From: Candidatus Bathyarchaeia archaeon
GTDB taxonomy: Archaea; Thermoproteota; Bathyarchaeia; Bathyarchaeales; Bathycorpusculaceae
Assembly (NCBI GenBank): GCA_049516875.1
Contig: JBEKSS010000001.1
Coordinates: 352,001 to 416,000, forward strand
Direction of reading: 5' to 3'
DNA: 64,000 nucleotides
Position numbers and translations under genes: made by a program. This document shows positions 2,865 to 53,974 of this stretch, piece after piece; position 1 is the stretch's first letter, and every line of letters begins with the position of its first letter. A model generated the notes under the pieces. That model was given only the letters and a program-made list of their open reading frames with translations. It had not been told where the DNA came from and ran no database searches.

Positions 2865-5165
2865 TTACTGTGATGCCAATCTGATTTGTCTTTGTCCTTT
2901 GACTGCATCATAAATGGTTTTAACGGAGTAGCCGAAGGGACTGAGCATGTTGGCTGCTGATGTGTAGAGAAGAAGCAGGTACTTCTTGGTGTCCGAGTCC
3001 GTATTCTTCTCTATTAGCTCTTCTGCCAGAACTCTTCTTTCGTGACGTTTGTTTTTGGCGCTCGTGAAGAGGAACCTGACGTTCTTTCCTGCCGCAACCT
3101 CAGCTCCTTCTTTGATTAGTTGTTCGGCTGCGATGACTTGGCTGACCCGTTGCTTGTAGCTCTTCGGATCCTTCGACAAGTGTTTTGTTATTATCAGATC
3201 CCAGACTGAAACCTCGCCGTCCAGAAGCTTCTGCCTGTACTCTTTCAGCTCCTTCAAAGCGTCAGGAATCTTCTCGACAAATTCTTTCGAGTTTTTGGCC
3301 TCTGCAAGCACTTCCAACATTCTGGTCTGAGCACTGCACACAAATGGGGGAGTGTCTCTTCTTCTAACCTCCAGACCTCTTACCTTGATTTTGCCGCTCT
3401 CCATCACTCCGTAGTAACGGTTCAAAACACCCACGTTCGGATGCATTCTAGACGGAAGAAAAACAATCCAGTTATACCGACCCTCAAAACTCAGCGGAAT
3501 CCTCGTCTCCTCGCGTACCCGGCTGCACAATTCCTGATACTCCTCATCCGTTGCTCCTCTCTTCTTGAGCCAAAGCGAATCAACAATGCCGTGAACAATC
3601 CTGAATCCCTTTTCTTCGGCTATTCTTGACGCTCTCAGAAAGGCTTCTCTGCCGAAAGCGCAGACGCCTATGTGCCCGTCCACAGTGCCAAACCGTGCGT
3701 TTCTGTAGCCCAGGTAGCCGAAGCACGTGACGAGAATCCACTTCAGAGCCGTCTGCCGATTGTCGTAAACCTCCCTCAGCCTTTCATCCTCAGCCTCCGA
3801 CTTCAGCCTCTTGTAGAGCAGCCTCTTCGCGATCACGGGCTTCAGAGCCTTCGGAACGATTCCCACTTTTTTCTCGCAGATGTTGTAGCCCAGTTCTGGA
3901 ATGCGAAGCTTCGAGTCTGGACAGCACTTACACAGCACCGTTTCGGCAGAGATGTTGTTGTTAACCATCACCGTCGGGTACATAGAAGCAAAGTCAACCT
4001 CCCCAACATCGTCATGCACGCCCACCTCCGGCTCATAGACGAAGCCACCCTTATCCCCGACGAGCAGCTCAAAAGCAGACTTGAACGCCTCAGGAATACT
4101 CTTGTTCCTCGGAATCAACACGCCATCCTTCATAGCCTGATAAAACTGAATCGAAGACATGCTCGAACCTATCGACGAACGCGCAGCCGTGTGCAGCGAA
4201 ACCCTGCAAGTCCGCGCAATCTCAAACAACCCGTCCAGCCCACACTCGGCCAGGATAAACGTGTTCCTCTCGTCAACGTGAACCCTACCATACAAACGCC
4301 TCATCGGAGCCCTGTAAAAAGTGCGACCATAAGAGAAGAAAGTCCTTCCACGAACCTTCCTAGCAACAAGCGGCGTGCCTTCCCGACCCAAAACAAGCTT
4401 ATCCACAACCCCGTTAATCACCGCCCTCCGAACAAGGTAGACGAAAAGATACGAATCTCCACCCTTCGTAACAATAATATCTGGATCAAGCTCTTTAATC
4501 ACCTGCACGAATCGAAGCAACTTGTACTCCTCGTCGCCCGAATCGACGACTTCTCCGCCACCGCCTTGGCTCACCGTGATTCTGCTTACGGGATCGCTTG
4601 TCTTGGCAATCTTGCCCTGCTTGGCAACTTCCACGTCGATTCGCGAGATTCTCAAAGGCGGAATCGCGTAATCCACGCTTTCAGCCGAATCAAGCAGGCC
4701 ATACTTCAATCGGCCGCTCTCAGACTTGACGTCAACGAGCGCCAACGGAAAAACGTCACGATCGTAAAAGTACAGCTGCTCATGCTTCAAATCACAGTTA
4801 AAAACCTCGTACTGCAGGTACCTTCCAGACTTCAACACTCGACGAGTGAACGAAGACAGTCTTCTGCAGTCTTCGAGAACCACTTCGAGAACGTTGGACT
4901 CTTCGACGTCAGTTGCCTTCGCACGCCTTCGAACAAAATCCCAAGAAACAACCGCCCCGTCGTACGGAAGCTGAGCGGCAAGCCTCTCCAAGCCTTCCTC
5001 TTTTCCTGAAACGTAGATTGTGGGCTTGAAACTGTCCGTGAATCGCAGGCGTTCTCCGTTTTCACTTATAATCCAAACCGCAAACTCTCCCAGTTTGGAA
5101 GGGTATACGTCGAGTACCCAGCCCCTCACATGATCAGGGTTGAGCTGGCTTCTGTTTGACTGCAA
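2865..5165 (-). CDS. polB2: Family B DNA polymerase, PolB2 group
   Basis: DFASMYP (motif A), KWILVTCFGYLGY (B), HGIVDSLW (variant C), degenerate exonuclease domain, operon with iRadA and small ORF. Confidence 0.9.
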   Translation of the reverse strand: MQSNRSQLNPDHVRGWVLDVYPSKLGEFAVWIISENGERLRFTDSFKPTIYVSGKEEGLERLAAQLPYDGAVVSWDFVRRRAKATDVEESNVLEVVLEDCRRLSSFTRRVLKSGRYLQYEVFNCDLKHEQLYFYDRDVFPLALVDVKSESGRLKYGLLDSAESVDYAIPPLRISRIDVEVAKQGKIAKTSDPVSRITVSQGGGGEVVDSGDEEYKLLRFVQVIKELDPDIIVTKGGDSYLFVYLVRRAVINGVVDKLVLGREGTPLVARKVRGRTFFSYGRTFYRAPMRRLYGRVHVDERNTFILAECGLDGLFEIARTCRVSLHTAARSSIGSSMSSIQFYQAMKDGVLIPRNKSIPEAFKSAFELLVGDKGGFVYEPEVGVHDDVGEVDFASMYPTVMVNNNISAETVLCKCCPDSKLRIPELGYNICEKKVGIVPKALKPVIAKRLLYKRLKSEAEDERLREVYDNRQTALKWILVTCFGYLGYRNARFGTVDGHIGVCAFGREAFLRASRIAEEKGFRIVHGIVDSLWLKKRGATDEEYQELCSRVREETRIPLSFEGRYNWIVFLPSRMHPNVGVLNRYYGVMESGKIKVRGLEVRRRDTPPFVCSAQTRMLEVLAEAKNSKEFVEKIPDALKELKEYRQKLLDGEVSVWDLIITKHLSKDPKSYKQRVSQVIAAEQLIKEGAEVAAGKNVRFLFTSAKNKRHERRVLAEELIEKNTDSDTKKYLLLLYTSAANMLSPFGYSVKTIYDAVKGQRQIRLASQ

Positions 5166-11365: not shown

Positions 11366-11565
11366 CTATTTCACGATAACATATGCTTAGAGCTGTCAAC
11401 TTATACTTTGTTGGCATAGCGTGCTAGGTTGTCGCGCGCGCTTTCTTGGAGTTTTGTCCAAGTCGCCAAAAGAGATATTGAGCAAATACATTAGGGCTTA
11501 TCTTGAGTGAGTGAAATTCTGCAACAAGTTTTATCTTTCGTGGTTGGTTTGTTTAATGGGGCGTT

Positions 11566-43275: not shown

Positions 43276-44313
43276 TTGATCGAGATTGACGGAAGCGAAA
43301 AAAGTGGAAGCGGCACGATTCTGAGGATGGCCGTCGCCCTATGCGCGATAATTGGGCAGCCGTTGCACATCTACAACATCAGAGAGAACCGTCCGCAGCC
43401 AGGTTTGAAGCCTCAGCATTTGGAAGCTGTTCTGACAGCCGCTAAGCTCTGTGACGCCGAACTGGAAGGTGCGAAAGTCGATTCACGGGAGCTTTGGTTC
43501 AGGCCTAAAGAAGTAAAAGGCGGCAAGGTCGAAGCTGAAATCGGCACTGCCGGAAGCATCTCAATGCTTCTCATGACAGTGCTCCCCATGTGCGCCTATG
43601 CCAAGAACGCTGTGCACCTGCACATTTCCAAAGGCGGAACGGATGTTACCCATTCGCCGACCATCAATTATATGCGCTTCGTCCTTTTGCCGACACTTCA
43701 ACGCATGGGACTGAACGCTGTTCTGACCGTTCACAAGTACGGCTACTATCCCAAAGGAAATGGCGAGGTGACAATAGATGTGACACCTTGCAAGTCCCTG
43801 AAAGCTTTGAGCCTAGAGACTTTTGGCAACGCCAAAGCGATAAAGGGAGTCTCAGTCTGCACATTCCTTGCTGACAGAAAAGTTGCTGAACGCCAAGCAA
43901 GAGCGGCGAACGAGTACCTGGGCGAAAGAGGCTACAAGGCTAACATCCAGATAATAAATGACACCTCGAACCCACTACAAAAGGGCAGTTCCATCGTCTT
44001 GTGGGCCGAGTCTGACACCAACGCTATTCTAGGAGCAGACGCTATCGGCGAACTGAGAAAAACAAGCGAAACAGTTGGAACCGAAGCAGCCGAGAAACTC
44101 CATGCAGAAATCATTGACAAACCCACGGTTGACGCCCACCTAGCTGACCTGCTTGTTCCATACGTAGCCCTGGCCCACGGCAAGTCAACTTATCTTACGC
44201 GGTCTCTTACCGAACATTCGCAGACAAACATCTGGCTTGCCAAAAAAATATTGAATGTAAAGTTTGTTCTTGAAAAGAAAGATGGACTATACAAGCTGGA
44301 GAAAGTTGGTTGA
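43276..44313 (+). CDS. rtcA: RNA 3'-terminal phosphate cyclase
   Basis: IDGS..SGSG.ILR, PGLKPQH, GGTDV, GYYPKG.G, VDAHLAD. Confidence 0.95.
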   Translation: MIEIDGSEKSGSGTILRMAVALCAIIGQPLHIYNIRENRPQPGLKPQHLEAVLTAAKLCDAELEGAKVDSRELWFRPKEVKGGKVEAEIGTAGSISMLLMTVLPMCAYAKNAVHLHISKGGTDVTHSPTINYMRFVLLPTLQRMGLNAVLTVHKYGYYPKGNGEVTIDVTPCKSLKALSLETFGNAKAIKGVSVCTFLADRKVAERQARAANEYLGERGYKANIQIINDTSNPLQKGSSIVLWAESDTNAILGADAIGELRKTSETVGTEAAEKLHAEIIDKPTVDAHLADLLVPYVALAHGKSTYLTRSLTEHSQTNIWLAKKILNVKFVLEKKDGLYKLEKVG

Positions 44314-44339
44314 ATTATGGCAATCGGCTTAGCGCGCGC

Positions 44340-44719
44340 TGATGACGGCTTTGATCACCTTCTCTAATCTCGTACATTCCTCGAGGACCCAGGCCTAAGG
44401 ACGGTTCATCTAGTATTAGGATCGGAGGATCGTACAGCAACGCTTGGGCTAATCCAAGTCTCTGTTTCGTTCCGCGAGAAAACTTGGCTATTCTAGTGTT
44501 TGCCCATTCGGAAAGTTTAACGGTTTCAAGCACCTCGCTATTCTGGGTTTCAAGCTTTGAAAGGCAATGCCGCGAAGCCTGCCAACATAGCCCAAGACTT
44601 CATTTGGAGTCAGATAAGAATAGAACTCTGGCGTTTCCACCATGGCACCAACGTTCTCAAGGGCTTTAGTTGATTCTCTAATCGCGTCATGCCCGTTGAT
44701 ATAGACCTTTCCTCTTGTA
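44340..44719 (-). pseudogene. ABC ATPase, downstream part of a split gene
   Basis: TRGKVYINGHD...VETPEFY...FSRGTKQRLGLAQAL..DPPILILDEPSLGL. Confidence 0.8.
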
Positions 44720-44748
44720 GATACTGTCCACTTAATCGGGATGGATGA

Positions 44749-45080
44749 CTATTTGACTATTTCCAATAATTCGTATGGACGCAATATTCTAATCTTGTTT
44801 GCATCTTGAATTTCCTTTCGATTCTCCTTAATCAGAAAATGTCTTTGATCCAGCGTCAAAAATACGTCACATGAACGAATCGCAAAAGAGAGATGAAGTG
44901 CATCGGGTATTGGAAGAAATGTATGCTTGAAAAGAAGGTCAATCACAGAATCTTCATCAATTTCATAGCTTCTTATTCTGAAGCCGACCTTTTCTAGTAG
45001 ATAGTCTGTGAATGTAGCCAGATTTTCGATAATTGCTCTTTTGGTATTTTCTTCTTTGATTTTGAAGCCATTCGCAGTAG
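44749..45080 (-). pseudogene. PIN-domain C-terminal fragment
   Basis: PDALHLSFA...CDVFLTLD..HF. Confidence 0.6.
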
Positions 45081-45117
45081 CTCGCCGTGACCCACCAGCA
45101 TTTGCACACGCGCTTAC

Positions 45118-46689
45118 TTATCCTAAGATTTTTTCTACCTCTTCCTTATCCGCATCAGTAACATAGCTAATACCTGATGCCTTTGCAGTTTCAGGAGTTA
45201 AAGCAACGATATCGTCTCGAGTGATGTATCGAACCGTGAATTTTCTGGCACCACACATTAATTGCTTTAATCCTTGGATCAGCCTCTGATTATAAGTATA
45301 AAGGCCCATCGCGCCTGTGGGTAAGTCCTTGAACTTTTTTCCAAACTTCTTCTTTAGTCTGCTCGCTTCGATAAAGGTTGCCTCGATGGTGTTTCCATAT
45401 CTTCCATAGTATATAGGTAGATTTCCTTCCGTAATCCCCCGACCTACGTTTTTACCTACCATCGCTGCGGTGAGTGGAGCTCTGGCCATACCCACAGCTT
45501 TGACGTAGGGTGCACCCAGAGCCAGTGCCTTGAAGATGTGATCTTCCATTGTAATGCCTCCCGCAAACGCTATGTCAGGTACGTATTCTCCCTTCTTCGC
45601 CAGTCTATCTGCATATTGATACGTCAAGGACCATATTTCTACGCTGGGTATTCCCCATTCGTTCATCATACGCCAGGGGCTCATCCCTGTTCCACCACCA
45701 GCGCCATCGATGGTAAGTAGGTCAATTCTTGCTAAGGACGAAAATTTCACTGCTCTTGCCACATCTGCTGGTCTGTAAGCGCCCGTCTTCAGGAAAACGT
45801 GCTTAGCACCTAAGCTTCTGAGCTCTTTTACTCTACTGAGGAAGGTCTCTTCGGTAACCATGCCCACTCTGGAATGTCTTTCAAACTCTTTGAAATGTCC
45901 CGCCTTAAATGCTTCAATAATGTCTGGATTTTCGGGATCAGGGAGAACTATGTATCCTCTTCTCTTTAGAAGCTGAGCTTTTTCCATATCCTTAATTTTA
46001 ACTTCACCACCTATGTCTTTAGCTCCTTGACCCCATTTTAGTTCAACGGCATCCACTTCTAAATCCGAAATGGCATACTCATGGACGCCGAGTCGTGTAT
46101 CTTCTATGTTGGCTTGAACAACAATAGCGCCGTAGCCTTCTTCTCTCCATTCTTTGTAAGTTTTCACCCTATATTCCAGTTCTGGAGAATGAATCACTTT
46201 TCCATCGTTGAATTTTGACTCCGCATCCATGCCACATACATTTTCACCAATTACTTGCATGGTCCCTGATATTGCCGCACCGATTGCCAGCTCTCTCCAA
46301 TTGTCGAGGGCGATTTTTGTGGATCCAAGTGCGCAGGTGAACCATGGAACTTTCAGTCTTATGCCTTTACCTTGACCGATTTTGGTTTCTAAGTCAACGT
46401 TGGGAAATATAGCTTTGTCACTATCGGCTTCGATGCCGACAGCTCCCACGGTTGTTCCCATAATGTTGAAGTGGGAGAGGTCTATAGGATAGTTCTTTTG
46501 AGATGCGGTGGTTATAACTCCGAAAGGCGCCGGGTATATGATTTCGCCGCCTCTTATTGCAGATTTGGCAACTTCGCAAGGACCTGGGCATCCATCTATG
46601 CATGTAACGCAGAGTCCGCTGACTGGACATGGATCCGTTCTATTCTTGGTCAGGGTTGCCGGGCTTGCATTTGGTTTGGAATAGCTCAT
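45118..46689 (-). CDS. FMN-binding glutamate synthase family protein
   Basis: ELKWGQGAK.IGGE, DGAGGGTG, AGG, KALALGA; N-terminal Cys cluster. Confidence 0.88.
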   Translation of the reverse strand: MSYSKPNASPATLTKNRTDPCPVSGLCVTCIDGCPGPCEVAKSAIRGGEIIYPAPFGVITTASQKNYPIDLSHFNIMGTTVGAVGIEADSDKAIFPNVDLETKIGQGKGIRLKVPWFTCALGSTKIALDNWRELAIGAAISGTMQVIGENVCGMDAESKFNDGKVIHSPELEYRVKTYKEWREEGYGAIVVQANIEDTRLGVHEYAISDLEVDAVELKWGQGAKDIGGEVKIKDMEKAQLLKRRGYIVLPDPENPDIIEAFKAGHFKEFERHSRVGMVTEETFLSRVKELRSLGAKHVFLKTGAYRPADVARAVKFSSLARIDLLTIDGAGGGTGMSPWRMMNEWGIPSVEIWSLTYQYADRLAKKGEYVPDIAFAGGITMEDHIFKALALGAPYVKAVGMARAPLTAAMVGKNVGRGITEGNLPIYYGRYGNTIEATFIEASRLKKKFGKKFKDLPTGAMGLYTYNQRLIQGLKQLMCGARKFTVRYITRDDIVALTPETAKASGISYVTDADKEEVEKILG

Positions 46690-46690
46690 A

Positions 46691-47365
46691 TTATTTCTCC
46701 TCCTTTTGTACACATGCTCCACATGATTCTAAAGTACACATGACTTGGTCATACTTTCCTAAACACTGTGGGGTTATTACAAGACAAGAGTTGCAGAGTT
46801 CTCCGGGAGACTTGACCCCACGACACTGCAAGTCTACTACGGGACAAATATACATGCAGGCTCCACAGTTGCGGCAGATTTCACTGGCCGTACGGAAGGG
46901 CGTGACCACTTCTCTTTTTTGGCCTCTGCCCGCGAAACCTATGGCTCCGCTTCTCATCTGTTCGGCGCACATCCTTACACATAAGCCACATAGGATGCAG
47001 TCTTCATTTTCCATCTTGAATCTAACTTGCTCTAATCCCATCTGTGAGGCTAAGTCTTGCAAGGTCTTAGAGTTGGGGCATCTGGCAAGTAATAGTTCCA
47101 GTATCAGTTTTCGCCCTTTCATCACTTTTTCAGAATGTGTTTTCACTTTTATCCCTTCTTTAACTGGATAAAGGCAAGACGCTACCAGTCTTACCCTTCT
47201 TCCGTCTTCAACCTCCACCGTGCATAGGCGGCAAGCGCCGTAAGGGGTTAACTCATCGTGGTGGCAGAGAGATGGAATACTAATCCCATAGAACCTGGCA
47301 ATTTCAAGTATTGTAGAGCCTTCTTCGGCTTGAGCCTTCACTCCATCAATAATGAGGTTTACCAT
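46691..47365 (-). CDS. NuoG/HydA N-terminal-like Fe-S protein without a catalytic domain
   Basis: IPSLC, GACRLC.VE, CILCGLCVRMC, CRNCGACMYICP. Confidence 0.85.
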   Translation of the reverse strand: MVNLIIDGVKAQAEEGSTILEIARFYGISIPSLCHHDELTPYGACRLCTVEVEDGRRVRLVASCLYPVKEGIKVKTHSEKVMKGRKLILELLLARCPNSKTLQDLASQMGLEQVRFKMENEDCILCGLCVRMCAEQMRSGAIGFAGRGQKREVVTPFRTASEICRNCGACMYICPVVDLQCRGVKSPGELCNSCLVITPQCLGKYDQVMCTLESCGACVQKEEK

Positions 47366-47377
47366 CTCACTCACTTC

Positions 47378-49234
47378 CTATTTGACTGATATGGCCTGAA
47401 ATGGGCAAGCATCTCGACAGATACCACATCTAATGCATTTGGCGGGGTCAATCGTGTGAGTCAAACCATATGCGTCGATGGCCTGTTGAGGACAGAGTTT
47501 TAAACAGGCACCGCATCCTGTGCATTTGTCTTCAAGGATGACAAACGTAATCAGGTCCCTGCAAATTCCAGCTGGGCACTTTTTATCTCTAATGTGGGCG
47601 GCATATTCATCTCCAAAATACCTGAGAGTTGACAAAACTGTATTTGGAGCTGTTTGACCAAGACCGCAAAGAGAAAAGTCTTTGACCATCCTCGCTAAGT
47701 CTTGGAGAAGTTCCAGATCTTCTTCCCCAGCCTGACCCTTGGTTATCTTAGTCACGATCTCAAGCATCCTTTTGATTCCCTCACGGCAGGGGACACATTT
47801 ACCACAAGATTCATTCTGTAAGAAGTCGAGAAAATATCGAGCCAAATCAACCATGCATGTGTCTTCGTCCATCACTATCATGCCGCCGGAGCCCATCATG
47901 GAGCCGGCTTCGGTTAACTTCTCAAAGTCGACAGTTAGGTCGAGTAATTCTTCAGGTATGCAGCCACCTGAGGGGCCACCGGTCTGTACGGCCTTAAACC
48001 TCTTGCCTTTCGTTATTCCTCCGCCTATGTCGTAAACAATCGTCTTAAGGGGGGTTCCCATTTGTATTTCGACGAGACCAGTGTTGTTAACCTTTCCAAC
48101 AAGAGAGAAAATGCCTGTTCCCTTGCTGTTCTCCGTCCCCATTTTTACATACCAGTCTGTGCCATTGTTAATAATCAAAGGCACATTGGCCCAGGTCTTA
48201 ACGTTATTCAAATTAGTTGGCTGATTCCACAGCCCACGCTCGACTGTGTGAACATATTTTGCTCTGGGCTCGCCCATTTTGCCTTCTATGGAGGCCATCA
48301 ACGCAGAAGATTCACCGCAGACAAACGCACCAGCACCCCGATTTATCTTGATGTCGAAGTCAAATCCAGAATTGAATATGTTGTTGCCTACGAATCCGTA
48401 TTCTCGTGCTTGGTCTATTGCCGTCTGGAGGTGCTTTAATGCCAGTGGATATTCTGCGCGAACGTATAAATATCCTTGATTCGCTCCTATAGCATAGGCT
48501 CCAATTATCATCCCTTCGAGAATGCTATGAGGATTCGCTTCCATGAGGCTTCTATCGCTAAAGGCACCTGGATCACCTTCATCTCCGTTTCCAATTACAA
48601 ACTTAACGTCTCCATGGGCTTCCTTGCAAGACCTCCATTTTCTTCCAGTTGGGAAGCCGCCTCCGCCAAGACCGCGTAACCCTGATTTTTCAATTGTATC
48701 AATGATTTCTTCGCAAGACATGGTTGTAGTAGCCTTTGCAAGAGCTTGATAACCGCCAATAGCAATGTAGTCAAGTATGTTTGTGGGGTCGATTCGTCCA
48801 TTGTTAGCAAGAACCAGCCTTGTCTGTTTTTTGTAGAAAGGAACTTCGTGCTCATACAAGGCTTTTTGACCTGTTATTGGATCTATATAAAGAAGGCGAT
48901 CAACAACCTCGCCATTGAGGAGAGTTTTTGAAACGATATCAGGAACATCACTCGGCTTTACTTTTTGATAAAAGATCTCTTTTGGTCCTATAACGATGAC
49001 AGGCCCTCTTTCGCAGAAGCCATGACATCCGGTTTGCTTGCAGTCTGCCTTGATTTCTAAACCTTGCCTCTCAATTTCATCCTTGAAAGATATCATAACA
49101 TTTGCGCTACCACGCGCTCGGCAACCAGTTCCGAGGCATACTCTTACACAAGGCTTATTGGGATCTCTCATTTGCACTAGCGAGTTTCGAAGAGAACCGA
49201 GCTCTTGAGTGGTTCTAATCTTTTTCATTCTCAC
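47378..49234 (-). CDS. NuoF/HydB-like NADH-binding flavoprotein
   Basis: SGLRGLGGGGFPTG, NGDEGDPG, ESCGKCVPCREG, C-terminal 2x[4Fe-4S]. Confidence 0.92.
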   Translation of the reverse strand: MRMKKIRTTQELGSLRNSLVQMRDPNKPCVRVCLGTGCRARGSANVMISFKDEIERQGLEIKADCKQTGCHGFCERGPVIVIGPKEIFYQKVKPSDVPDIVSKTLLNGEVVDRLLYIDPITGQKALYEHEVPFYKKQTRLVLANNGRIDPTNILDYIAIGGYQALAKATTTMSCEEIIDTIEKSGLRGLGGGGFPTGRKWRSCKEAHGDVKFVIGNGDEGDPGAFSDRSLMEANPHSILEGMIIGAYAIGANQGYLYVRAEYPLALKHLQTAIDQAREYGFVGNNIFNSGFDFDIKINRGAGAFVCGESSALMASIEGKMGEPRAKYVHTVERGLWNQPTNLNNVKTWANVPLIINNGTDWYVKMGTENSKGTGIFSLVGKVNNTGLVEIQMGTPLKTIVYDIGGGITKGKRFKAVQTGGPSGGCIPEELLDLTVDFEKLTEAGSMMGSGGMIVMDEDTCMVDLARYFLDFLQNESCGKCVPCREGIKRMLEIVTKITKGQAGEEDLELLQDLARMVKDFSLCGLGQTAPNTVLSTLRYFGDEYAAHIRDKKCPAGICRDLITFVILEDKCTGCGACLKLCPQQAIDAYGLTHTIDPAKCIRCGICRDACPFQAISVK

Positions 49235-49698
49235 CCTGCACCCGCTTTTAGAACACTACGAACTTTCGTTGGCGTCATTTTGTCAAAATAGCGTTCTCCG
49301 ACAACTATAACTGGAGCCAGCGCACAAGCACCAACACAATGAACCGATTGAAGACTAAATGTGCGATCAGATGTCGTTTCACCGTCTTTTATACCCAGCT
49401 CTTTTTCCACAGACTCAAGAACTCTGGGAGAACCTCTAAGGTAGCAGGCAGTTCCCAGACATACACGAACGAGGTGCTTGCCACGAGGGGTTAGGTGGAA
49501 TGCATCATAAAATGAAGCTACACCGTAGACCTGAATCATCGGAACACCAAGTTTTTCAGAAACATGTTTTAACGCCCACGCTGGAAGATAAGCGAACAAA
49601 TTTTCAGTTTCTTGCAATATCATTATCAACGCTGACTTTTCATAAGAATAACTTCTGATAATCTCGTTGACCTTGTACTCAGAAGCCCTTTCAGCCAA
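49231..49698 (-). CDS. NuoE/HydC-like [2Fe-2S] subunit
   Basis: VCLGTACYLRG, CVGACALAP. Confidence 0.92.
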   Translation of the reverse strand: MAERASEYKVNEIIRSYSYEKSALIMILQETENLFAYLPAWALKHVSEKLGVPMIQVYGVASFYDAFHLTPRGKHLVRVCLGTACYLRGSPRVLESVEKELGIKDGETTSDRTFSLQSVHCVGACALAPVIVVGERYFDKMTPTKVRSVLKAGAG

Positions 49699-49774
49699 GT
49701 TTCATGGCACCTCTCAAGTCAATTATCTGCTCCTAATGTTGCTGGAAGTGAGGATCTTTTGAAGCCTTGGCATC

Positions 49775-50092
49775 TCAACTTCTGGAAACTCTCTTTATAC
49801 CTTTGAAACTTAGGGGAGCTTCTTCCGGAATCTCCTCAGCAAACATTATTTCGTAGACATCCTTTGAGGCACACTTAGGACACTCCAAAGATCTGTACCT
49901 ACATGTTTGACAATTTTCGGATTCGGTACCAATTCGAAGACTAAGATCCTCAGTTCCCTCTTTATGCCCAACAACCAATCCAACGAGTTCAATCCATGTG
50001 TTTCCGCAACTAGCACAACTAACTCTCTTCTTGATCAACTCCCCTTCCCCCCCTCTGTTTTCAATTTCCTTAACAATTTCTGTGACTTTCAA
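49775..50092 (-). CDS. Zn-ribbon hypothetical protein
   Basis: CASC, CQTC, CPKC. Confidence 0.6.
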   Translation of the reverse strand: MKVTEIVKEIENRGGEGELIKKRVSCASCGNTWIELVGLVVGHKEGTEDLSLRIGTESENCQTCRYRSLECPKCASKDVYEIMFAEEIPEEAPLSFKGIKRVSRS

Positions 50093-50312
50093 ACAACATC
50101 AAACATCTTAAGCATATTATTGAGCTATTTAACGCTTTCGTTCGACAAAGTCCAAAATTAATGGATATTGCAAGATAAGCGAGAACGAGATACTTACAAT
50201 GTCGAAAAAAGAGAGATAGGCATCATCTTGTTCTTCCGACATCATAAGGTTCCAAGGCAAAAATGGTATATTTTTTAAACTGTGAACACTAATTTCACAT
50301 AGGCGGCGTACA

Positions 50313-50792
50313 TTGACCACGAAAATAAAAATTGATGAGATTGATGTGAACATCATTAGGGCTTTACAGAAGGACGCACGTGCCAATTTTGCAGATATAG
50401 CAAGAAACTGTGACGTGTCAACAGATACCATAAGTAAACGATTCAGAAAGATGAAGAAAGCCAACATTATCAGAGGGACGACGATACTGTTGAACCCAAA
50501 AAGCTTCGGCTATGATTGCGTTGCGAGCTTTGGTATTCGCGTCGATTATCCACACGTAGAGGATGTTGTTGACTTTATCGAAAAGATACCAGAAGTAGTT
50601 TTCTGCAATCCATCTCTGGGCAGACACAACATATTCGCAATAGCAGTACTGAAAAATGTTGGCAGGTTGAGTCAAGTGAAGGAATCCATACAAGGACATC
50701 CCATGGTTAGGGAGGTAGCCGCCAGCATCTGGGTCGATGAGATACTGTTATGTCCAGAAAACTTCGAATTCGAACAGGTAAAAAAGAAGTGA
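50313..50792 (+). CDS. Lrp/AsnC regulator
   Basis: IDEID..II.ALQKDAR..FADIA. Confidence 0.9.
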   Translation: MTTKIKIDEIDVNIIRALQKDARANFADIARNCDVSTDTISKRFRKMKKANIIRGTTILLNPKSFGYDCVASFGIRVDYPHVEDVVDFIEKIPEVVFCNPSLGRHNIFAIAVLKNVGRLSQVKESIQGHPMVREVAASIWVDEILLCPENFEFEQVKKK

Positions 50793-50798
50793 CAAGGA

Positions 50799-51272
50799 AT
50801 GGATAAAATAGACCTTGCTATAATTGATAAGCTAACTGATGATGCTCGCACGTCTTTCAGAGAGATTGCAAAGGAACTTGGTATTTCACCGGACACTGTG
50901 ATAAATAGATATGCTGCACTGCAAAAAGAGGGCGTAATCCGAGGATCCACAATCGTAATCAACCCGAAGAAAGTTGGTTATCAAGCCATGGCCGTATTTA
51001 TGATCGATATCTCGCCTGCACACATCATGGCGACTGAAGTTACTCCAGCCGATTCTTCAATAATCTTAGATAAGCTGATTCAGATGCCAAACATAATCGT
51101 GGCTACAAAGAGTGTTGGAGACCACGACTTATTGGCTATTGGTGTAGCTATAGATTTTGAACATTTGATTAAACTGAGAGATTATATCGCAAAAATACCC
51201 GGTGTTAAAGATATTCAAGTATCATTCTGGGTCGAAAGAACAGAACTTTGCCCCAAATACTTCGTAATTTGA
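50799..51272 (+). CDS. Lrp/AsnC regulator
   Basis: MDKIDLAII..LTDDARTSFREIAKELG. Confidence 0.9.
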   Translation: MDKIDLAIIDKLTDDARTSFREIAKELGISPDTVINRYAALQKEGVIRGSTIVINPKKVGYQAMAVFMIDISPAHIMATEVTPADSSIILDKLIQMPNIIVATKSVGDHDLLAIGVAIDFEHLIKLRDYIAKIPGVKDIQVSFWVERTELCPKYFVI

Positions 51273-51583
51273 GCAATTTGAGCAGAATGTAAGTTGAAAA
51301 CTTGAACCGGTATTTGTACCTTTCTTCATGACCTTAGGTATTTTTTTCTTACTGGTAAACGTATGTTCAATTTTCAACCTCCACCTACAAAATCTCGAAT
51401 TAACCTTCTTTTACTGAAACAAGCCCAACATAAGCCTGAAATTCAAGTGCGGGGGTCGGACCCCCACCCAACTTTACCGGTAAAAATATGTTAAATATAT
51501 GCCTGGCGAAAATTCGATGCTCTACCGAGCTATCAACAAACCCAAGTCACGTGGTCGTTCAACTCTCGTTTTTGAAATGGGGG

Positions 51584-51745
51584 CTAGGGGAAGATTCCCC
51601 TTTCATCTGCAACATCTGTTGCCTTGGAAACAGCGAAAACAAACGCTGCATTTCTCATATCAAGGTTGTAGTTTTTAGCGGTATCCATAATATTATTATA
51701 AGCGGTAGCCATTTTCTTTTGAAGCTTTTCTTTAACTTTCCTTAA
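51584..51745 (-). pseudogene. Glutamate dehydrogenase C-terminal fragment
   Basis: Manual translation KVKEKLQKKMATAYNNIMDTAKNYNLDMRNAAFVFAVSKATDVADERGIFP*. Confidence 0.75.
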
Positions 51746-51801
51746 CAGAAAACTTCAAGGTCATCGCAAAGACTTCTTGGGTAACTTAACTTAGCAGAAC
51801 C

Positions 51802-51974
51802 CCTCTTGTAGGCCAGATTAGACTGCACAGAATTTTGATTGTCGTGGATTTTCCCGCACCGTTTGGACCTAGAAAACCAACTCAGTGCCCACTGTCTATT
51901 TTCAAACTCAAATCGTTGGGAGCCAGAATCTTACCATAGTATTTGGTTAAACCTTCCGTGACTATAGCTTCCAT
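51802..51974 (-). pseudogene. ABC ATPase, N-terminal part of the split gene
   Basis: MEAIVTEGLTKYYG...[28 protein letters not shown], with an internal TGA. Confidence 0.82.
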
Positions 51975-52103
51975 GAACCCGTCTCCAAACCATAGTTGAT
52001 CTTGCACCGATAAATGGTTAAGTCTTGGCTAGTAGACCATGGAACATATAAATGTTTATTTTCTGCCTAACAATAGCGTTTGCAAGTCAAAGGAAAAAAT
52101 CAA

Positions 52104-52892
52104 ATGAACAGCTTTGCCCGTAAAAAACTCATTCGAGAATACTATTCAAAAAGATCCAAGGATTATGATCGGCAGAAAAGCAGAACTTGGAAGTCGAGTC
52201 AAGGTTTTGGAAATGAAGTTTTTGACGAACTGCTAACGGCTTTGAAAGGGTTTAGAAACAGACTCCTGCTGGAAGTAGGCGTGGGAAGTGGCAGAAACGC
52301 GTTACCCCTGCTTGAAAAAGTCAAACCGCAGCTTATAGGACTGGACCTGTCAAAGGAAATGCTGAAACATGCAAAAACAAAAATGTCCTCCTTCAAAGAC
52401 TGTCTTGACTTGATCCTGGCTGACGGCGAACATTTGCCTTTTGTGAACCATGCTTTTGATGCGCTCATCTGCATGAGCACGATGCACTATTTCGCGTCTC
52501 CGGCGAGAGTCCTACAGAGATTCAGAAACGCGCTCAAAGAAAACGGAACGCTTGTGTACGGGGATTTGACAGTTCACGAAACGGATAATCAAGGATTCTT
52601 TGAAGGACTAGAGAGAACCCTGTCTAAAGCCCATACAAGATACTATAAACCATCACAGATAAAGACGCTCATTAAGAAACAAGGACTCCACATATCAAAG
52701 ATGAAAACGGTTGCCTACCGAAAAACCTACAGCGCTTTAATGGAAGACAAGGGACAGTACTTCAGAGTCACGCCCGAAACGCTTCACAAGTACATAGGAG
52801 GAGCCAACGCAGAGTCAAAGGAACAATATACATTAACCAGCACGGAGATGACCCTGTTTTACACGGTGATCACAACGAAAAAAGAAAACTGA
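52104..52892 (+). CDS. Class I SAM methyltransferase
   Basis: LEVGVGSGR, GLDLSKEML, LPF...FD. Confidence 0.85.
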   Translation: MNSFARKKLIREYYSKRSKDYDRQKSRTWKSSQGFGNEVFDELLTALKGFRNRLLLEVGVGSGRNALPLLEKVKPQLIGLDLSKEMLKHAKTKMSSFKDCLDLILADGEHLPFVNHAFDALICMSTMHYFASPARVLQRFRNALKENGTLVYGDLTVHETDNQGFFEGLERTLSKAHTRYYKPSQIKTLIKKQGLHISKMKTVAYRKTYSALMEDKGQYFRVTPETLHKYIGGANAESKEQYTLTSTEMTLFYTVITTKKEN

Positions 52893-52906: not shown

Positions 52907-53974
52907 ATGAAAAAGTCAGCATGCATCAAAACTCCTAAGCAAGACGGTGAGAAAACCCTAACCCTAGCCAACAAGCTCGGAATGATCAACAAAGACTTAG
53001 AAATTCAACGAGACGAAAAATTCATCTACATCCCACTGACCAAGCGGCCATCAACGGAAGAAATGAAAATTCTCAAACAACAAGTGGCAGGCTGCAAAGT
53101 TTCAGTTCACTCTTTTCCAGAAAGAAAGAAACCGAGAATGTCACTTGCTCAGCTTCTTGAGGATAAGCTTCCACCACATCTGTTGGCCAGCTTGCCCCGC
53201 GCCATAGACTTCGTCGGCGACATAGCCATAGTTGAGGTTCCTCCGGAGCTTGACGCGTACAAACCTGCCATCGGCGAGGCAATTTTGAAAACGAACCGAA
53301 AAGTGGGCACGGTGCTTGCCAAGGCGGGAGCAGTGGGCGGGACCTACCGTTTAAGGGAGTTCACCGTAATAGCAGGCGAACCCAAAACCGAGACCATCCA
53401 CAAGGAATACGGATGCCAGTACTATGTGGACGTAGCCAAAGCCTTCTTTTCGCCGCGACTTTCATTCGAACATCGCAGAGTAGCATCGCTGATAGAGGAA
53501 GGCGAGACAGTTGTTGACTTATTCGCAGGAGTTGGACCTTTCTCGATACAAATCGCCAGAAATCATCAAAACGCAACAGTCTATGCTGTGGATGTGAACC
53601 CAGACGCAGTTGAATGTCTCAAGAAGAACATAAGGATCAACAGGGTCACGGGCAGGGTTCATCCCATCCTGGGAAATGCGAGACAAGTCGTCAAGAACAG
53701 GCTTTCTGGCGTTGCTGACCGTGCAATCATGAATCTGCCTGAAAAAGCCATCGAGTTTGTCGATGTAGCCTGCGAAACCATCAAGCCTTCAGGAGGTAAA
53801 GTGCACTTCTACGGCTTCGTCAACAAGCCTGATTCTTTAGAAAACCTCAAGGATCTCTTTGCGGACGCTGTTAAAAAGTCTGGAAGATATGTAGAGAAAA
53901 CATCGTTTTCGAGACTTGTCCGTGAGACAGCCCCGTACGAGTGGCAAGCAGTCTTAGACGTCAGAATCTGTTAG
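52907..53974 (+). CDS. Trm5/TYW2-family tRNA methyltransferase
   Basis: FFSPRLS.EH.R, DLFAGVGPF, DVNPDA, IMNLP. Confidence 0.9.
   Translation: MKKSACIKTPKQDGEKTLTLANKLGMINKDLEIQRDEKFIYIPLTKRPSTEEMKILKQQVAGCKVSVHSFPERKKPRMSLAQLLEDKLPPHLLASLPRAIDFVGDIAIVEVPPELDAYKPAIGEAILKTNRKVGTVLAKAGAVGGTYRLREFTVIAGEPKTETIHKEYGCQYYVDVAKAFFSPRLSFEHRRVASLIEEGETVVDLFAGVGPFSIQIARNHQNATVYAVDVNPDAVECLKKNIRINRVTGRVHPILGNARQVVKNRLSGVADRAIMNLPEKAIEFVDVACETIKPSGGKVHFYGFVNKPDSLENLKDLFADAVKKSGRYVEKTSFSRLVRETAPYEWQAVLDVRIC

Follow-up and report, generated by a model that had tools for sequence, protein, structure and literature searches.

A probable transposase-less cargo transposon with divergent IS6-like ends in the genome of an uncultured peat bathyarchaeon

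We analyzed a contiguous 64,000-nucleotide (nt) stretch of DNA (G000:C1:352001-416000, hereafter the window) from an uncultured peat archaeon of the Bathyarchaeia. The host is represented by a 2.43 Mb metagenome-assembled genome (MAG) of 20 contigs that is 97.5% complete, with 5.4% estimated contamination. At window positions 44720-51801 lies a 7,082-bp insertion that splits an ABC ATPase gene and is flanked by a 9-bp target duplication. This segment is very probably a cargo transposon of the mobile-insertion-cassette type, without a transposase and bounded by two divergent ends of an IS6-like family. A preliminary description, made from the sequence of the window alone, had proposed a transposase-less transposon with IS6-type ends in this gene. 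That proposal is now supported by an empty site in a relative, by the seamless fit of the two gene halves and by a family of related elements.

The direct repeat on which the preliminary description was built, the 10-nt CCTCTTGTAG, is present at 44711-44720 and 51802-51811. The duplication had been given as 10 bp, or as 9 bp if the last G belongs to the element. We settle on 9 bp because this G is the first base of the terminal inverted repeat (IR) in all family members; related elements also duplicate 9 bp. The element thus begins with the tenth base of the direct repeat, and the target site duplication CCTCTTGTA occupies 44711-44719 on the left and, in a matching copy, 51802-51810 on the right. 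The 10-nt repeat by itself is not above chance, as the window holds 1,247 identical 10-mer pairs spaced 1-15 kb apart. The significance of the insertion therefore rests on the empty site, the rejoined gene and the IR family, rather than on the 10-mer alone.

When the interval and one repeat copy are excised, the minus-strand reading frame continues through ...LIWPTRG|KVYINGHD..., as the preliminary description had reported. The N-terminal part of the ABC ATPase, which includes the Walker A motif (51802-51974, minus strand), aligns with an intact ABC ATPase from a different genus (G300, a 316-codon frame at locus L238), of which it covers residues 7-36 and 38-63. The C-terminal part (44315-44719, minus strand) starts at residue 64 of the same homolog, with 41 of 60 residues identical. 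Together, the halves cover residues 7-63 and 64-123 and meet without a gap at 63|64. They are thus parts of one gene, not of two different genes. Both halves are likewise adjacent in G300 and in a second genome, G298.

An unoccupied version of this site is present in locus L003 (G437:C5), from a genome of the same genus that carries the closest rtcA relative (87% amino acid identity). Positions 11433-11490 of L003 match window positions 44662-44719 at 84.5%, and positions 11482-11539 match 51802-51859 at 84.7%. These two matches share 9 nt, so L003 has a single target copy where the window has two, 7 kb apart. A whole-genome search of G437 returned the same pair of flank matches. The empty ABC allele that the preliminary description had suggested seeking in relatives is thus found within the genus.

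The split gene is itself a pseudogene, because it is frameshifted at least twice in its C-terminal half and cut off near residue 190 by the 3′ end of rtcA. The N-terminal part also contains an in-frame TGA (51882-51884). As G437 likewise keeps only a fragment of the gene (~107 nt), the gene was probably already decaying before the insertion, which need not have killed it.

Metagenome assemblies contain the same structure. We compared the window with four runs (X5-X8) from four studies, none of which is marked as a possible source. Contigs bridge both junctions in all four: X5 (records 1 and 8), X6 (9 and 14), X7 (17 and 23) and X8 (27 and 28). Record 14 of X6 spans 7,218 nt with zero differences. 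The left junction is also represented, by at least half of its sampled words, in 12 runs. No contig of runs X5-X8 carries a precise empty allele. The sole long joint, from 44331 to 52065 in X5 (intervening letters unread), comes from a more abundant relative with different flank letters. Run X6 also contains variant contigs over 44761-45027 and loose ends that start exactly at 44720. This suggests that the left-end module also exists in another context in the X6 community.

The two ends of the element are IRs of distinct subtypes. The left IR (GATACTGTCCACTTAATCGGGATG, ‘CCAC’ subtype; 44720-44743, plus strand) has a twin at C7:182117 of the host genome that is identical at 23 of 24 positions. 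The right terminus (51737-51801, minus strand) is derived from an insertion sequence (IS), and its last 22 nt (51780-51801) form a ‘TAAG’-subtype IR that reads GGTTCTGCTAAGTTAAGTTACC inward. The two 16-nt element ends agree at 10 positions, in line with the preliminary count. The right IR is identical at 21 of 22 positions to the IRs of a cassette in G364. Extended to 66 nt (51737-51802, one base of which belongs to the target duplication), the right end shares 87% and 84% identity with termini in the same-genus genomes G437 and G459. Read inward, its last 22 nt also resemble ends in the host genome at C3:219193, C8:36935, C7:2816 and C9:106189.

We searched 111 genomes of the same taxonomic family for the IR consensus GATACTGTTAAGTTAAGTTACC, allowing up to three mismatches, with the reversed pattern as a control. 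The consensus was matched in 19 genomes, as compared to two hits for the control. The ends, which the preliminary description had proposed to search against ISfinder and the genome, belong to an IR family that is common in Bathyarchaeia. Seven inverted pairs were identified, spanning 332, 346, 348 and 462 bp (the size of miniature inverted-repeat transposable elements), 1,912, 5,031 and 6,522 bp. Five of these have duplications of exactly 9 bp; in the other two, 8 of 9 and 7 of 9 positions agree. Across the 11 paired elements examined, the duplication is exactly 9 bp in eight (the window element, L223, L224, L225, L227, L228, L252 and C7:2816-4055 of the host genome), matches at 8 of 9 positions in L226 and at 7 of 9 in L229, and is missing in G469. 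A 9-bp duplication is thus a trait of this family, unlike the 8 bp of classical IS6 elements.

The left end represents a second IR subtype. GATACTGTCCACTTAATCGGGATG agrees with the main consensus at 13 of 22 positions, the first 8 nt being identical, and with up to three mismatches it occurs in two of the 111 genomes. An exact scan with this pattern of a species-representative collection returned two further records, including the complete chromosome G469. A transposase-bearing element in G469 has IRs that match the left end without a difference over 23 nt. The tips of the family’s IRs (GGTTCTG, GGTACTG and GATACTG) also resemble the GG..CTG tips of IS6. Both ends of the window element are thus bona fide ends of IS6-like transposase-bearing elements, but of two sister subtypes.

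Partner ends for isolated IRs in the host genome were sought through recurrence of their 9-bp flanks. None was found for C7:182117 or C8:36935, and the flank of C3:219193 recurs once, without an IR-like end. The host genome also contains a 1,240-bp derivative of the same IS family (C7:2816-4055) with an exact 9-bp duplication, CAGCTGATC. It contains a 161-codon membrane-protein open reading frame (ORF) and the last ~80 codons of a transposase. The right tip of the derivative, GGTACTGT, is at the margin of this transposase remnant. Because only the first 8-9 nt of this tip are IR-like, the sequence suggests that the first ~8 nt of an end matter most and that the tip alone could serve as an end.

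Three of the related elements encode a central transposase. L223 (G404:C156:10104-15134, 5,031 bp) combines an IS6-family transposase with HicB-like, DarG-like and aspartic-protease-like ORFs. L224 (G408:C31:3566-10087, 6,522 bp) combines its IS6-family transposase with a 911-aa N6-methylase/restriction-like protein, which also has a weak MADS2 match, and ORFs of unknown function. L259 (G469:C1:1264999-1271591, 6,593 bp) has two perfect inverted 23-nt ‘CCAC’ ends around an IS6-type transposase, a methylase-Mrr fusion, a HATPase_c_3 (MORC-like) protein and unknown ORFs. Each of these elements carries four to six further ORFs besides its transposase, and no plain IS-sized copy is present among the inverted pairs of the 111-genome search. 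A second IS6-like tip (GGTTCTGTCAAG...) lies 26 nt inside the left IR of the G469 element (L259 positions 600-650); these ends are possibly nested or in tandem.

Two other relatives are transposase-less cassettes, both in G364. L225 (G364:C6:42933-44844, 1,912 bp) encodes an anti-phage dCTP-deaminase-like protein. L252 (G364:C10, 1,167 bp) has GATACTGTCCACTTAATCGGGATG-type ends, a 9-bp duplication (CTCTCAATA) and one unknown ORF of 273 codons.

The transposases of these relatives are of the IS6/IS240 type. The L223 and L224 proteins match NCBIfam model NF033587 (IS6) at 129 and 127.9 bits, above the cut-off of 125, over positions 1-202 of 202. DDE_Tnp_IS240 (Pfam accession PF13610) is recognized in the L223, L224 and G469 transposases (E 5e-20, 2e-20 and 4e-20, the last 3.6e-20 before rounding). 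The L223 and L224 transposases are ~300 aa long, have an IS1/IS1595-type zinc ribbon at the N-terminus and are 86% identical to each other amid different passenger genes; the G469 transposase is 48% identical to the L223 type. In alignments of these proteins, a K follows seven residues after the E of a VERLHGTLK stretch. In a plasmid collection, their best annotated matches are transposases labelled ‘IS6 family’ and ‘ISCpe7 family’ (28-29% identity over 86-89% of the protein). None of the 220 matching plasmid records reaches 60% identity, and those annotated as IS6 are below 30%. The IS6-type resemblance noted for the window’s termini thus has a counterpart in the relatives, where the same ends flank IS6-type transposases.

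Within 44720-51801 we identified no transposase by Pfam and NCBIfam scans, among ORFs of at least 100 aa, or by tblastn and hidden Markov model searches of the genome; the preliminary description had likewise noted no transposase in the cargo. Elsewhere in the host genome, the cognate ~300-aa type is represented only by two C-terminal fragments, at C8:37777-38007 (70% identity, with one TGA) and C7:3807-4055 (60% identity). The NF033587 model had a single match in the genome, an N-truncated 212-aa ORF (C12:39809-40444, 77 bits) of a different, SWIM-bearing type of ~380 aa.

We considered the SWIM type as a source of cognate transposases and rejected it. No convincing pair of IRs emerged from searches for motifs and inverted repeats in the surroundings of 29-30 of its loci, and the C12 copy is only 34-38% identical to the ~300-aa transposases found inside IR-bounded elements. 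No IRs were found within 1.5 kb on either side of SWIM-type transposases (L164-L192 and the host’s own C12 copy). This type of IS6-like transposase, with an N-terminal SWIM zinc finger, is present, frequently as multiple copies, in 87 of the 401 sampled Bathyarchaeia genomes.

Seven intact cargo genes lie in the element, four of which form an operon on the minus strand. The first operon protein is a 534-aa glutamate-synthase FMN-domain protein (45118-46722; Pfam accession PF01645, E 1.3e-14) whose best relatives, in other Bathyarchaeia, have 82-89% amino acid identity. The second is a 227-aa 2Fe-2S/4Fe-4S subunit (46691-47374) that family scans liken to the N-terminus of NuoG or HoxU. The third is a 618-aa NuoF-like flavoprotein (47378-49234) with thioredoxin-like 2Fe-2S and 2x4Fe-4S extensions; it matches TIGR01959 at 454.6 bits, below the cut-off of 558.65. 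The fourth is a 155-aa NuoE/HoxE-like 2Fe-2S protein (49231-49698; Pfam accession PF01257, E 2.4e-49). Next come a 105-aa cysteine-rich, zinc-ribbon-like protein (49775-50092, minus strand; no family at E≤0.001) and, on the plus strand, two tandem Lrp/AsnC regulators recognized by family scans (50313-50792 and 50799-51272).

Each end of the cargo contains a gene remnant. On the left, a weakly PIN-like ORF without a credible start codon (44749-45114, minus strand) scores E 0.092 and 13.8 bits for Pfam accession PF01850 and matches no NCBIfam model. On the right, a C-terminal fragment of glutamate dehydrogenase (GDH; 51587-51754, minus strand; NF040817 GdhA_Arch positions 366-417 of 419, E 1e-11) abuts the right terminus. 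The preliminary description was right that a truncated GDH gene lies at this end, but the fragment is inside the element, not outside it.

A role in nitrogen assimilation, as first proposed for the cargo, is not established. Glutamate synthases have further domains, including an amidotransferase and a GXGXG domain. Neither has a Pfam match in the 534-aa protein, in which PF01645 is the sole glutamate-synthase family, and nitrogen assimilation is for this reason a guess. The GDH piece is a remnant of 56 residues, and with this fragment as the query we found no other GDH in the host genome. The NuoE- and NuoF-like genes likewise occur nowhere else in the host genome, and the FMN-domain protein has one paralog, 49% identical, on C7. 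Among 80 bacterial and archaeal loci with relatives of the operon proteins, a GltB-like protein is present in 80, the FeS protein in 71, the NuoF-like protein in 67 and the NuoE-like protein in 63. The cargo operon resembles NuoE/NuoF-type (HydBC/Bfu-like) modules described in passages of PMC9304861, and no retrieved passage of that article places a glutamate-synthase-type module within such a combination.

Several observations bear on the origin of the cargo. First, the operon has its closest counterparts in other Bathyarchaeia, at 72-83% nucleotide identity. Second, the whole block from the FMN-domain gene (GltB) to the second Lrp gene is colinear, at 79% nucleotide identity, with a 5.8-kb contig of G403. 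The zinc-ribbon gene and the Lrp pair are linked in G403, G466 and G090, with 66-76% amino acid identity for the Lrp pair. Third, no cargo-gene match is among those listed for the four same-genus genomes (up to seven candidates per genome). Finally, nothing convincing resembling the IR motif flanks the operon at 10 cargo loci scanned in other genomes, of which L084 and L085 have 7-10 kb on each side and most others are short or cut contigs. The same-genus rtcA loci L003 and L004 also lack the motif. The element has a GC content of 43.6%, as compared to a genome mean of 47.2% (standard deviation 2.0), which places it at the 5.4th percentile of 2,302 equal-size windows; the earlier characterization of the cargo as AT-richer is thus right in direction, although the difference is only modest. 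Because the congeners have no cargo match, G403 holds a colinear block, the operon is not IR-flanked elsewhere and the GC content is lower, the cargo block appears to be native in some lineages and to have been imported here inside the element.

At locus L083, an IR-like 16-mer with two mismatches and without the CTG core lies at position 3077 (minus strand) and points into the operon. It is located 18 nt past the stop codon of the closest FMN-domain homolog, on a contig that is cut on the other side, and probably reflects chance.

The arrangement of the two ends suggests how the block may have become mobile. On the right, the IS-derived terminus of 65 nt borders directly on the final ~50 codons of GDH, which points into the element. 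On the left, the IR is followed after 28 nt by the 3′ end of the PIN-like ORF, the 5′ part of which is missing. A simple IS insertion into a GDH gene would leave the GDH piece outside the IR, so these junctions look like deletions or illegitimate joins that fused the chromosomal block to internal sequence of two different elements.

We propose the following route. A chromosomal block from another Bathyarchaeia lineage, comprising the operon, the zinc-ribbon gene and the two Lrp/AsnC regulators, would have become mobile by lying between the ends of two related elements. One end would have been of the ‘CCAC’ type, with a PIN-like passenger remnant, and the other of the ‘TAAG’ type, fused to the 3′ part of a GDH gene. 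Both ends could then have been recognized by a ~300-aa DDE transposase with a zinc ribbon, a helix-turn-helix (HTH) and an IS6/IS240-type catalytic domain, supplied by another copy or by a gene since lost from the element. The 3′ tips would have been joined, with a 9-bp stagger, to a target within the ABC ATPase gene, which was probably already decaying; gap repair would then have generated the duplication CCTCTTGTA. Mobilization in trans and this route of capture are inferred from the present arrangement of the element, and the chemistry may have been either cut-and-paste or an IS26-style cointegrate followed by resolution.

Several points weigh against this interpretation. The IRs of relatives are at least 22 nt long, near perfect and start with GG or GA, whereas the window’s own ends agree at only 10 of 16 positions and the agreement of the left end with the main consensus is limited to 13 of 22. 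At the right tip, a C stands in place of the T present in 34 of the 36 family ends listed. A single transposase would have had to use both of these unlike ends, and the transposase-bearing element of G469 has no target duplication. The mechanistic analogy with classical IS6 elements, with their 8-bp duplications and directly repeated copies, is imperfect. No intact cognate transposase was found in the 97.5%-complete assembly, which makes current mobility doubtful, although an intact copy may lie in the part of the genome missing from it. Neither a donor locus with a full-length GDH gene beside the block (in G403, G466 or G090) nor a second copy of the 7-kb element at another site was found. 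The element may also have carried its own transposase at the time of insertion and lost it later.

This last point can be taken further. The element could have inserted as an autonomous IS6-like transposon that later lost its transposase by internal deletion in place and was never mobilized in trans. Such a history would agree with the central transposases of all three large relatives (L223, L224 and the G469 element), and the gene remnants inside both ends of the window element (44749-45114 and 51587-51754) show that internal rearrangement has taken place. However, the element contains no transposase remnant, the block from GltB to the second Lrp gene aligns with the G403 contig without a gap, and all four metagenome runs contain the same transposase-less structure. 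L225 and L252 are smaller cassettes that also lack a transposase and have intact 9-bp duplications, and mobilization in trans thus seems to occur in this family. We consider a deletion in place unlikely.

Far less probable is a genomic island placed by a tyrosine or serine site-specific recombinase, with the direct repeat as the crossover core and the IS-like ends as a coincidence. The interval between rtcA and trm5 does vary among relatives, from nearly 0 to 5 kb, and the cargo includes a dispersed repeat with a tRNA-like stretch. Yet there is no integrase in or beside the element, and the target lies inside a protein gene rather than a tRNA gene; no tRNA or known RNA was found at the insertion site (ARAGORN; Rfam at E≤0.1). 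Moreover, inverted ends of this kind recur at eight different sites, where the duplicated sequences are unrelated but always 9 bp long, a hallmark of DDE transposition. The many 10-mer pairs at such spacing and the estimated contamination of the MAG might point to a coincidental repeat or to chimerism of the contig, with no mobile element present; that account is refuted by the empty site in a relative, the exact rejoining at residues 63|64, the IR family with its 9-bp duplications and the contigs over both junctions in four of four runs. A transposase-less cargo transposon with IS6-like ends thus accounts best for the insertion.

The element lies in a variable part of the genome. It is preceded by rtcA (43276-44313, plus strand), after which the ABC ATPase remnants follow on the minus strand; beyond these remnants are a class-I methyltransferase gene (52080-52892, plus strand) and then trm5/tyw2 (52907-53974, plus strand). 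The contents of the rtcA-trm5 interval (window positions 44314-52079; loci L003-L027) differ among relatives along with its length. In some, trm5 directly follows rtcA; in others, the interval contains the methyltransferase gene or, in G300, an intact ABC ATPase and a permease. In the two closest genomes, it contains 2.8-5 kb of unrelated genes.

The cargo also includes a copy of a dispersed repeat of ~190 nt (51349-51539), with a GC hairpin and a degenerate stretch resembling the 3′ half of a tRNA. Other copies in the host genome are located at C8:375-536, C8:3340-3494, C8:9466-9547, C7:171821-171942, C7:167935-168041, C4:54769-54907 and C9:19633-19673. Copies are 70-77% identical, share a GC hairpin core and a TATA-like stretch, and occur in many related genomes. 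The better copies contain sequence like a tRNA T-arm, acceptor 3′ strand and CCA, and one abuts a tRNA-Leu(GAG). The repeat matches no Rfam family, and ARAGORN predicts no tRNA at the other copies; at two other loci of the repeat submitted to Rfam, only the adjoining tRNA-Leu scored. In all four metagenome runs, the repeat has very high contig depth, with loose ends at 51451 and 51486-51492.

To our knowledge, almost nothing is known about gene exchange among uncultured Bathyarchaeia. The element described here provides a concrete vehicle for it, whose ends and duplication length are defined and for which there are candidate transposases. By this means, a seven-gene redox and regulatory block appears to have moved into a lineage whose four sequenced congeners are without it. 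In relatives, the cargo between such ends includes restriction-modification-like, dCTP-deaminase-like, MORC-like and toxin-antitoxin-like genes, and the family is thus a useful marker for accessory and defence genes in these MAGs. The findings also widen the IS6 group, adding large passenger-rich elements and cassettes that duplicate 9 bp. The principle is not new, as bacteria are known to have cargo cassettes between IS ends.

A literature search returned no relevant paper on IS6-type insertion sequences in Bathyarchaeia. We tentatively suggest that Bathyarchaeia may harbor an undescribed group of IS6-related transposons, with a 9-bp duplication, ~22-bp IRs of at least two subtypes and a central zinc-ribbon DDE transposase, that might act as a general gene shuttle. 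Autonomous forms would carry defence genes, while the pairing of ends from different copies around chromosomal DNA would turn whole metabolic operons into cassettes, up to 7 kb long and without a transposase, that pass from one lineage of these archaea to another.

These elements share several features with the IS6 family, which includes IS26, IS257, archaeal members and the longer, zinc-finger-bearing ISCpe7-like members. The transposases of the window’s relatives reach the IS6 model over its full length, just above the cut-off, and match DDE_Tnp_IS240. Passages of the IS6 review (PMC7986276) describe longer clades in which a zinc finger or a further N-terminal domain is added, and the zinc ribbon, HTH and DDE layout seen here fits such a clade. 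In other respects they differ from the members described there. Typical elements in those passages are ~800 bp long (about 700-900 bp, at most ~1.76 kb), with one ORF, and have 8-bp direct repeats, whereas the duplication here is 9 bp and the transposase-bearing relatives are 5-6.6 kb long, with several passengers on both sides of the transposase. By definition, IS6 members also have short, near-perfect IRs that start with GG, a DDE transposase with K or R after the E, and replicative transposition through cointegrates. As of 2021, the same passages list two miniature elements and a single passenger-carrying member, ISDsp3, with one passenger gene. They also describe IS6 cargo as moving between directly repeated IS copies, whereas the cargo here lies between inverted 22-bp ends and not between directly repeated whole copies of an IS.

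A similar comparison holds for the pseudo-compound transposons and translocatable units of IS26. These likewise represent an IS6-family route for moving cargo genes, but they rely on whole direct IS copies and 8-bp repeats; in the window element, the corresponding parts are only 22-65 bp of IS end on each side, in inverted orientation, and a 9-bp repeat.

The relatives L223, L224 and the G469 element resemble transporter IS (tIS) elements and unit transposons, in that each is a single unit of IRs, one transposase and passengers, here toxin-antitoxin-like, restriction-modification-like and a MORC-like ATPase. The transposase of these relatives is central, with cargo on both sides, and the window element differs further from tIS elements and unit transposons in having no transposase.

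The window element itself is closest in type to the mobile insertion cassettes, such as the IS231-derived MIC231 of Bacillus cereus and the qnrD and qnrS2 mic elements. Like them, it has IS-type IRs around genes unrelated to transposition, no transposase, a target duplication of the parent-IS type and a presumed mobilization in trans. Unlike them, it is large (7.1 kb, with seven intact genes), resides in an archaeal host, and combines two IR subtypes with fragments of genes that were apparently broken as the element was assembled.

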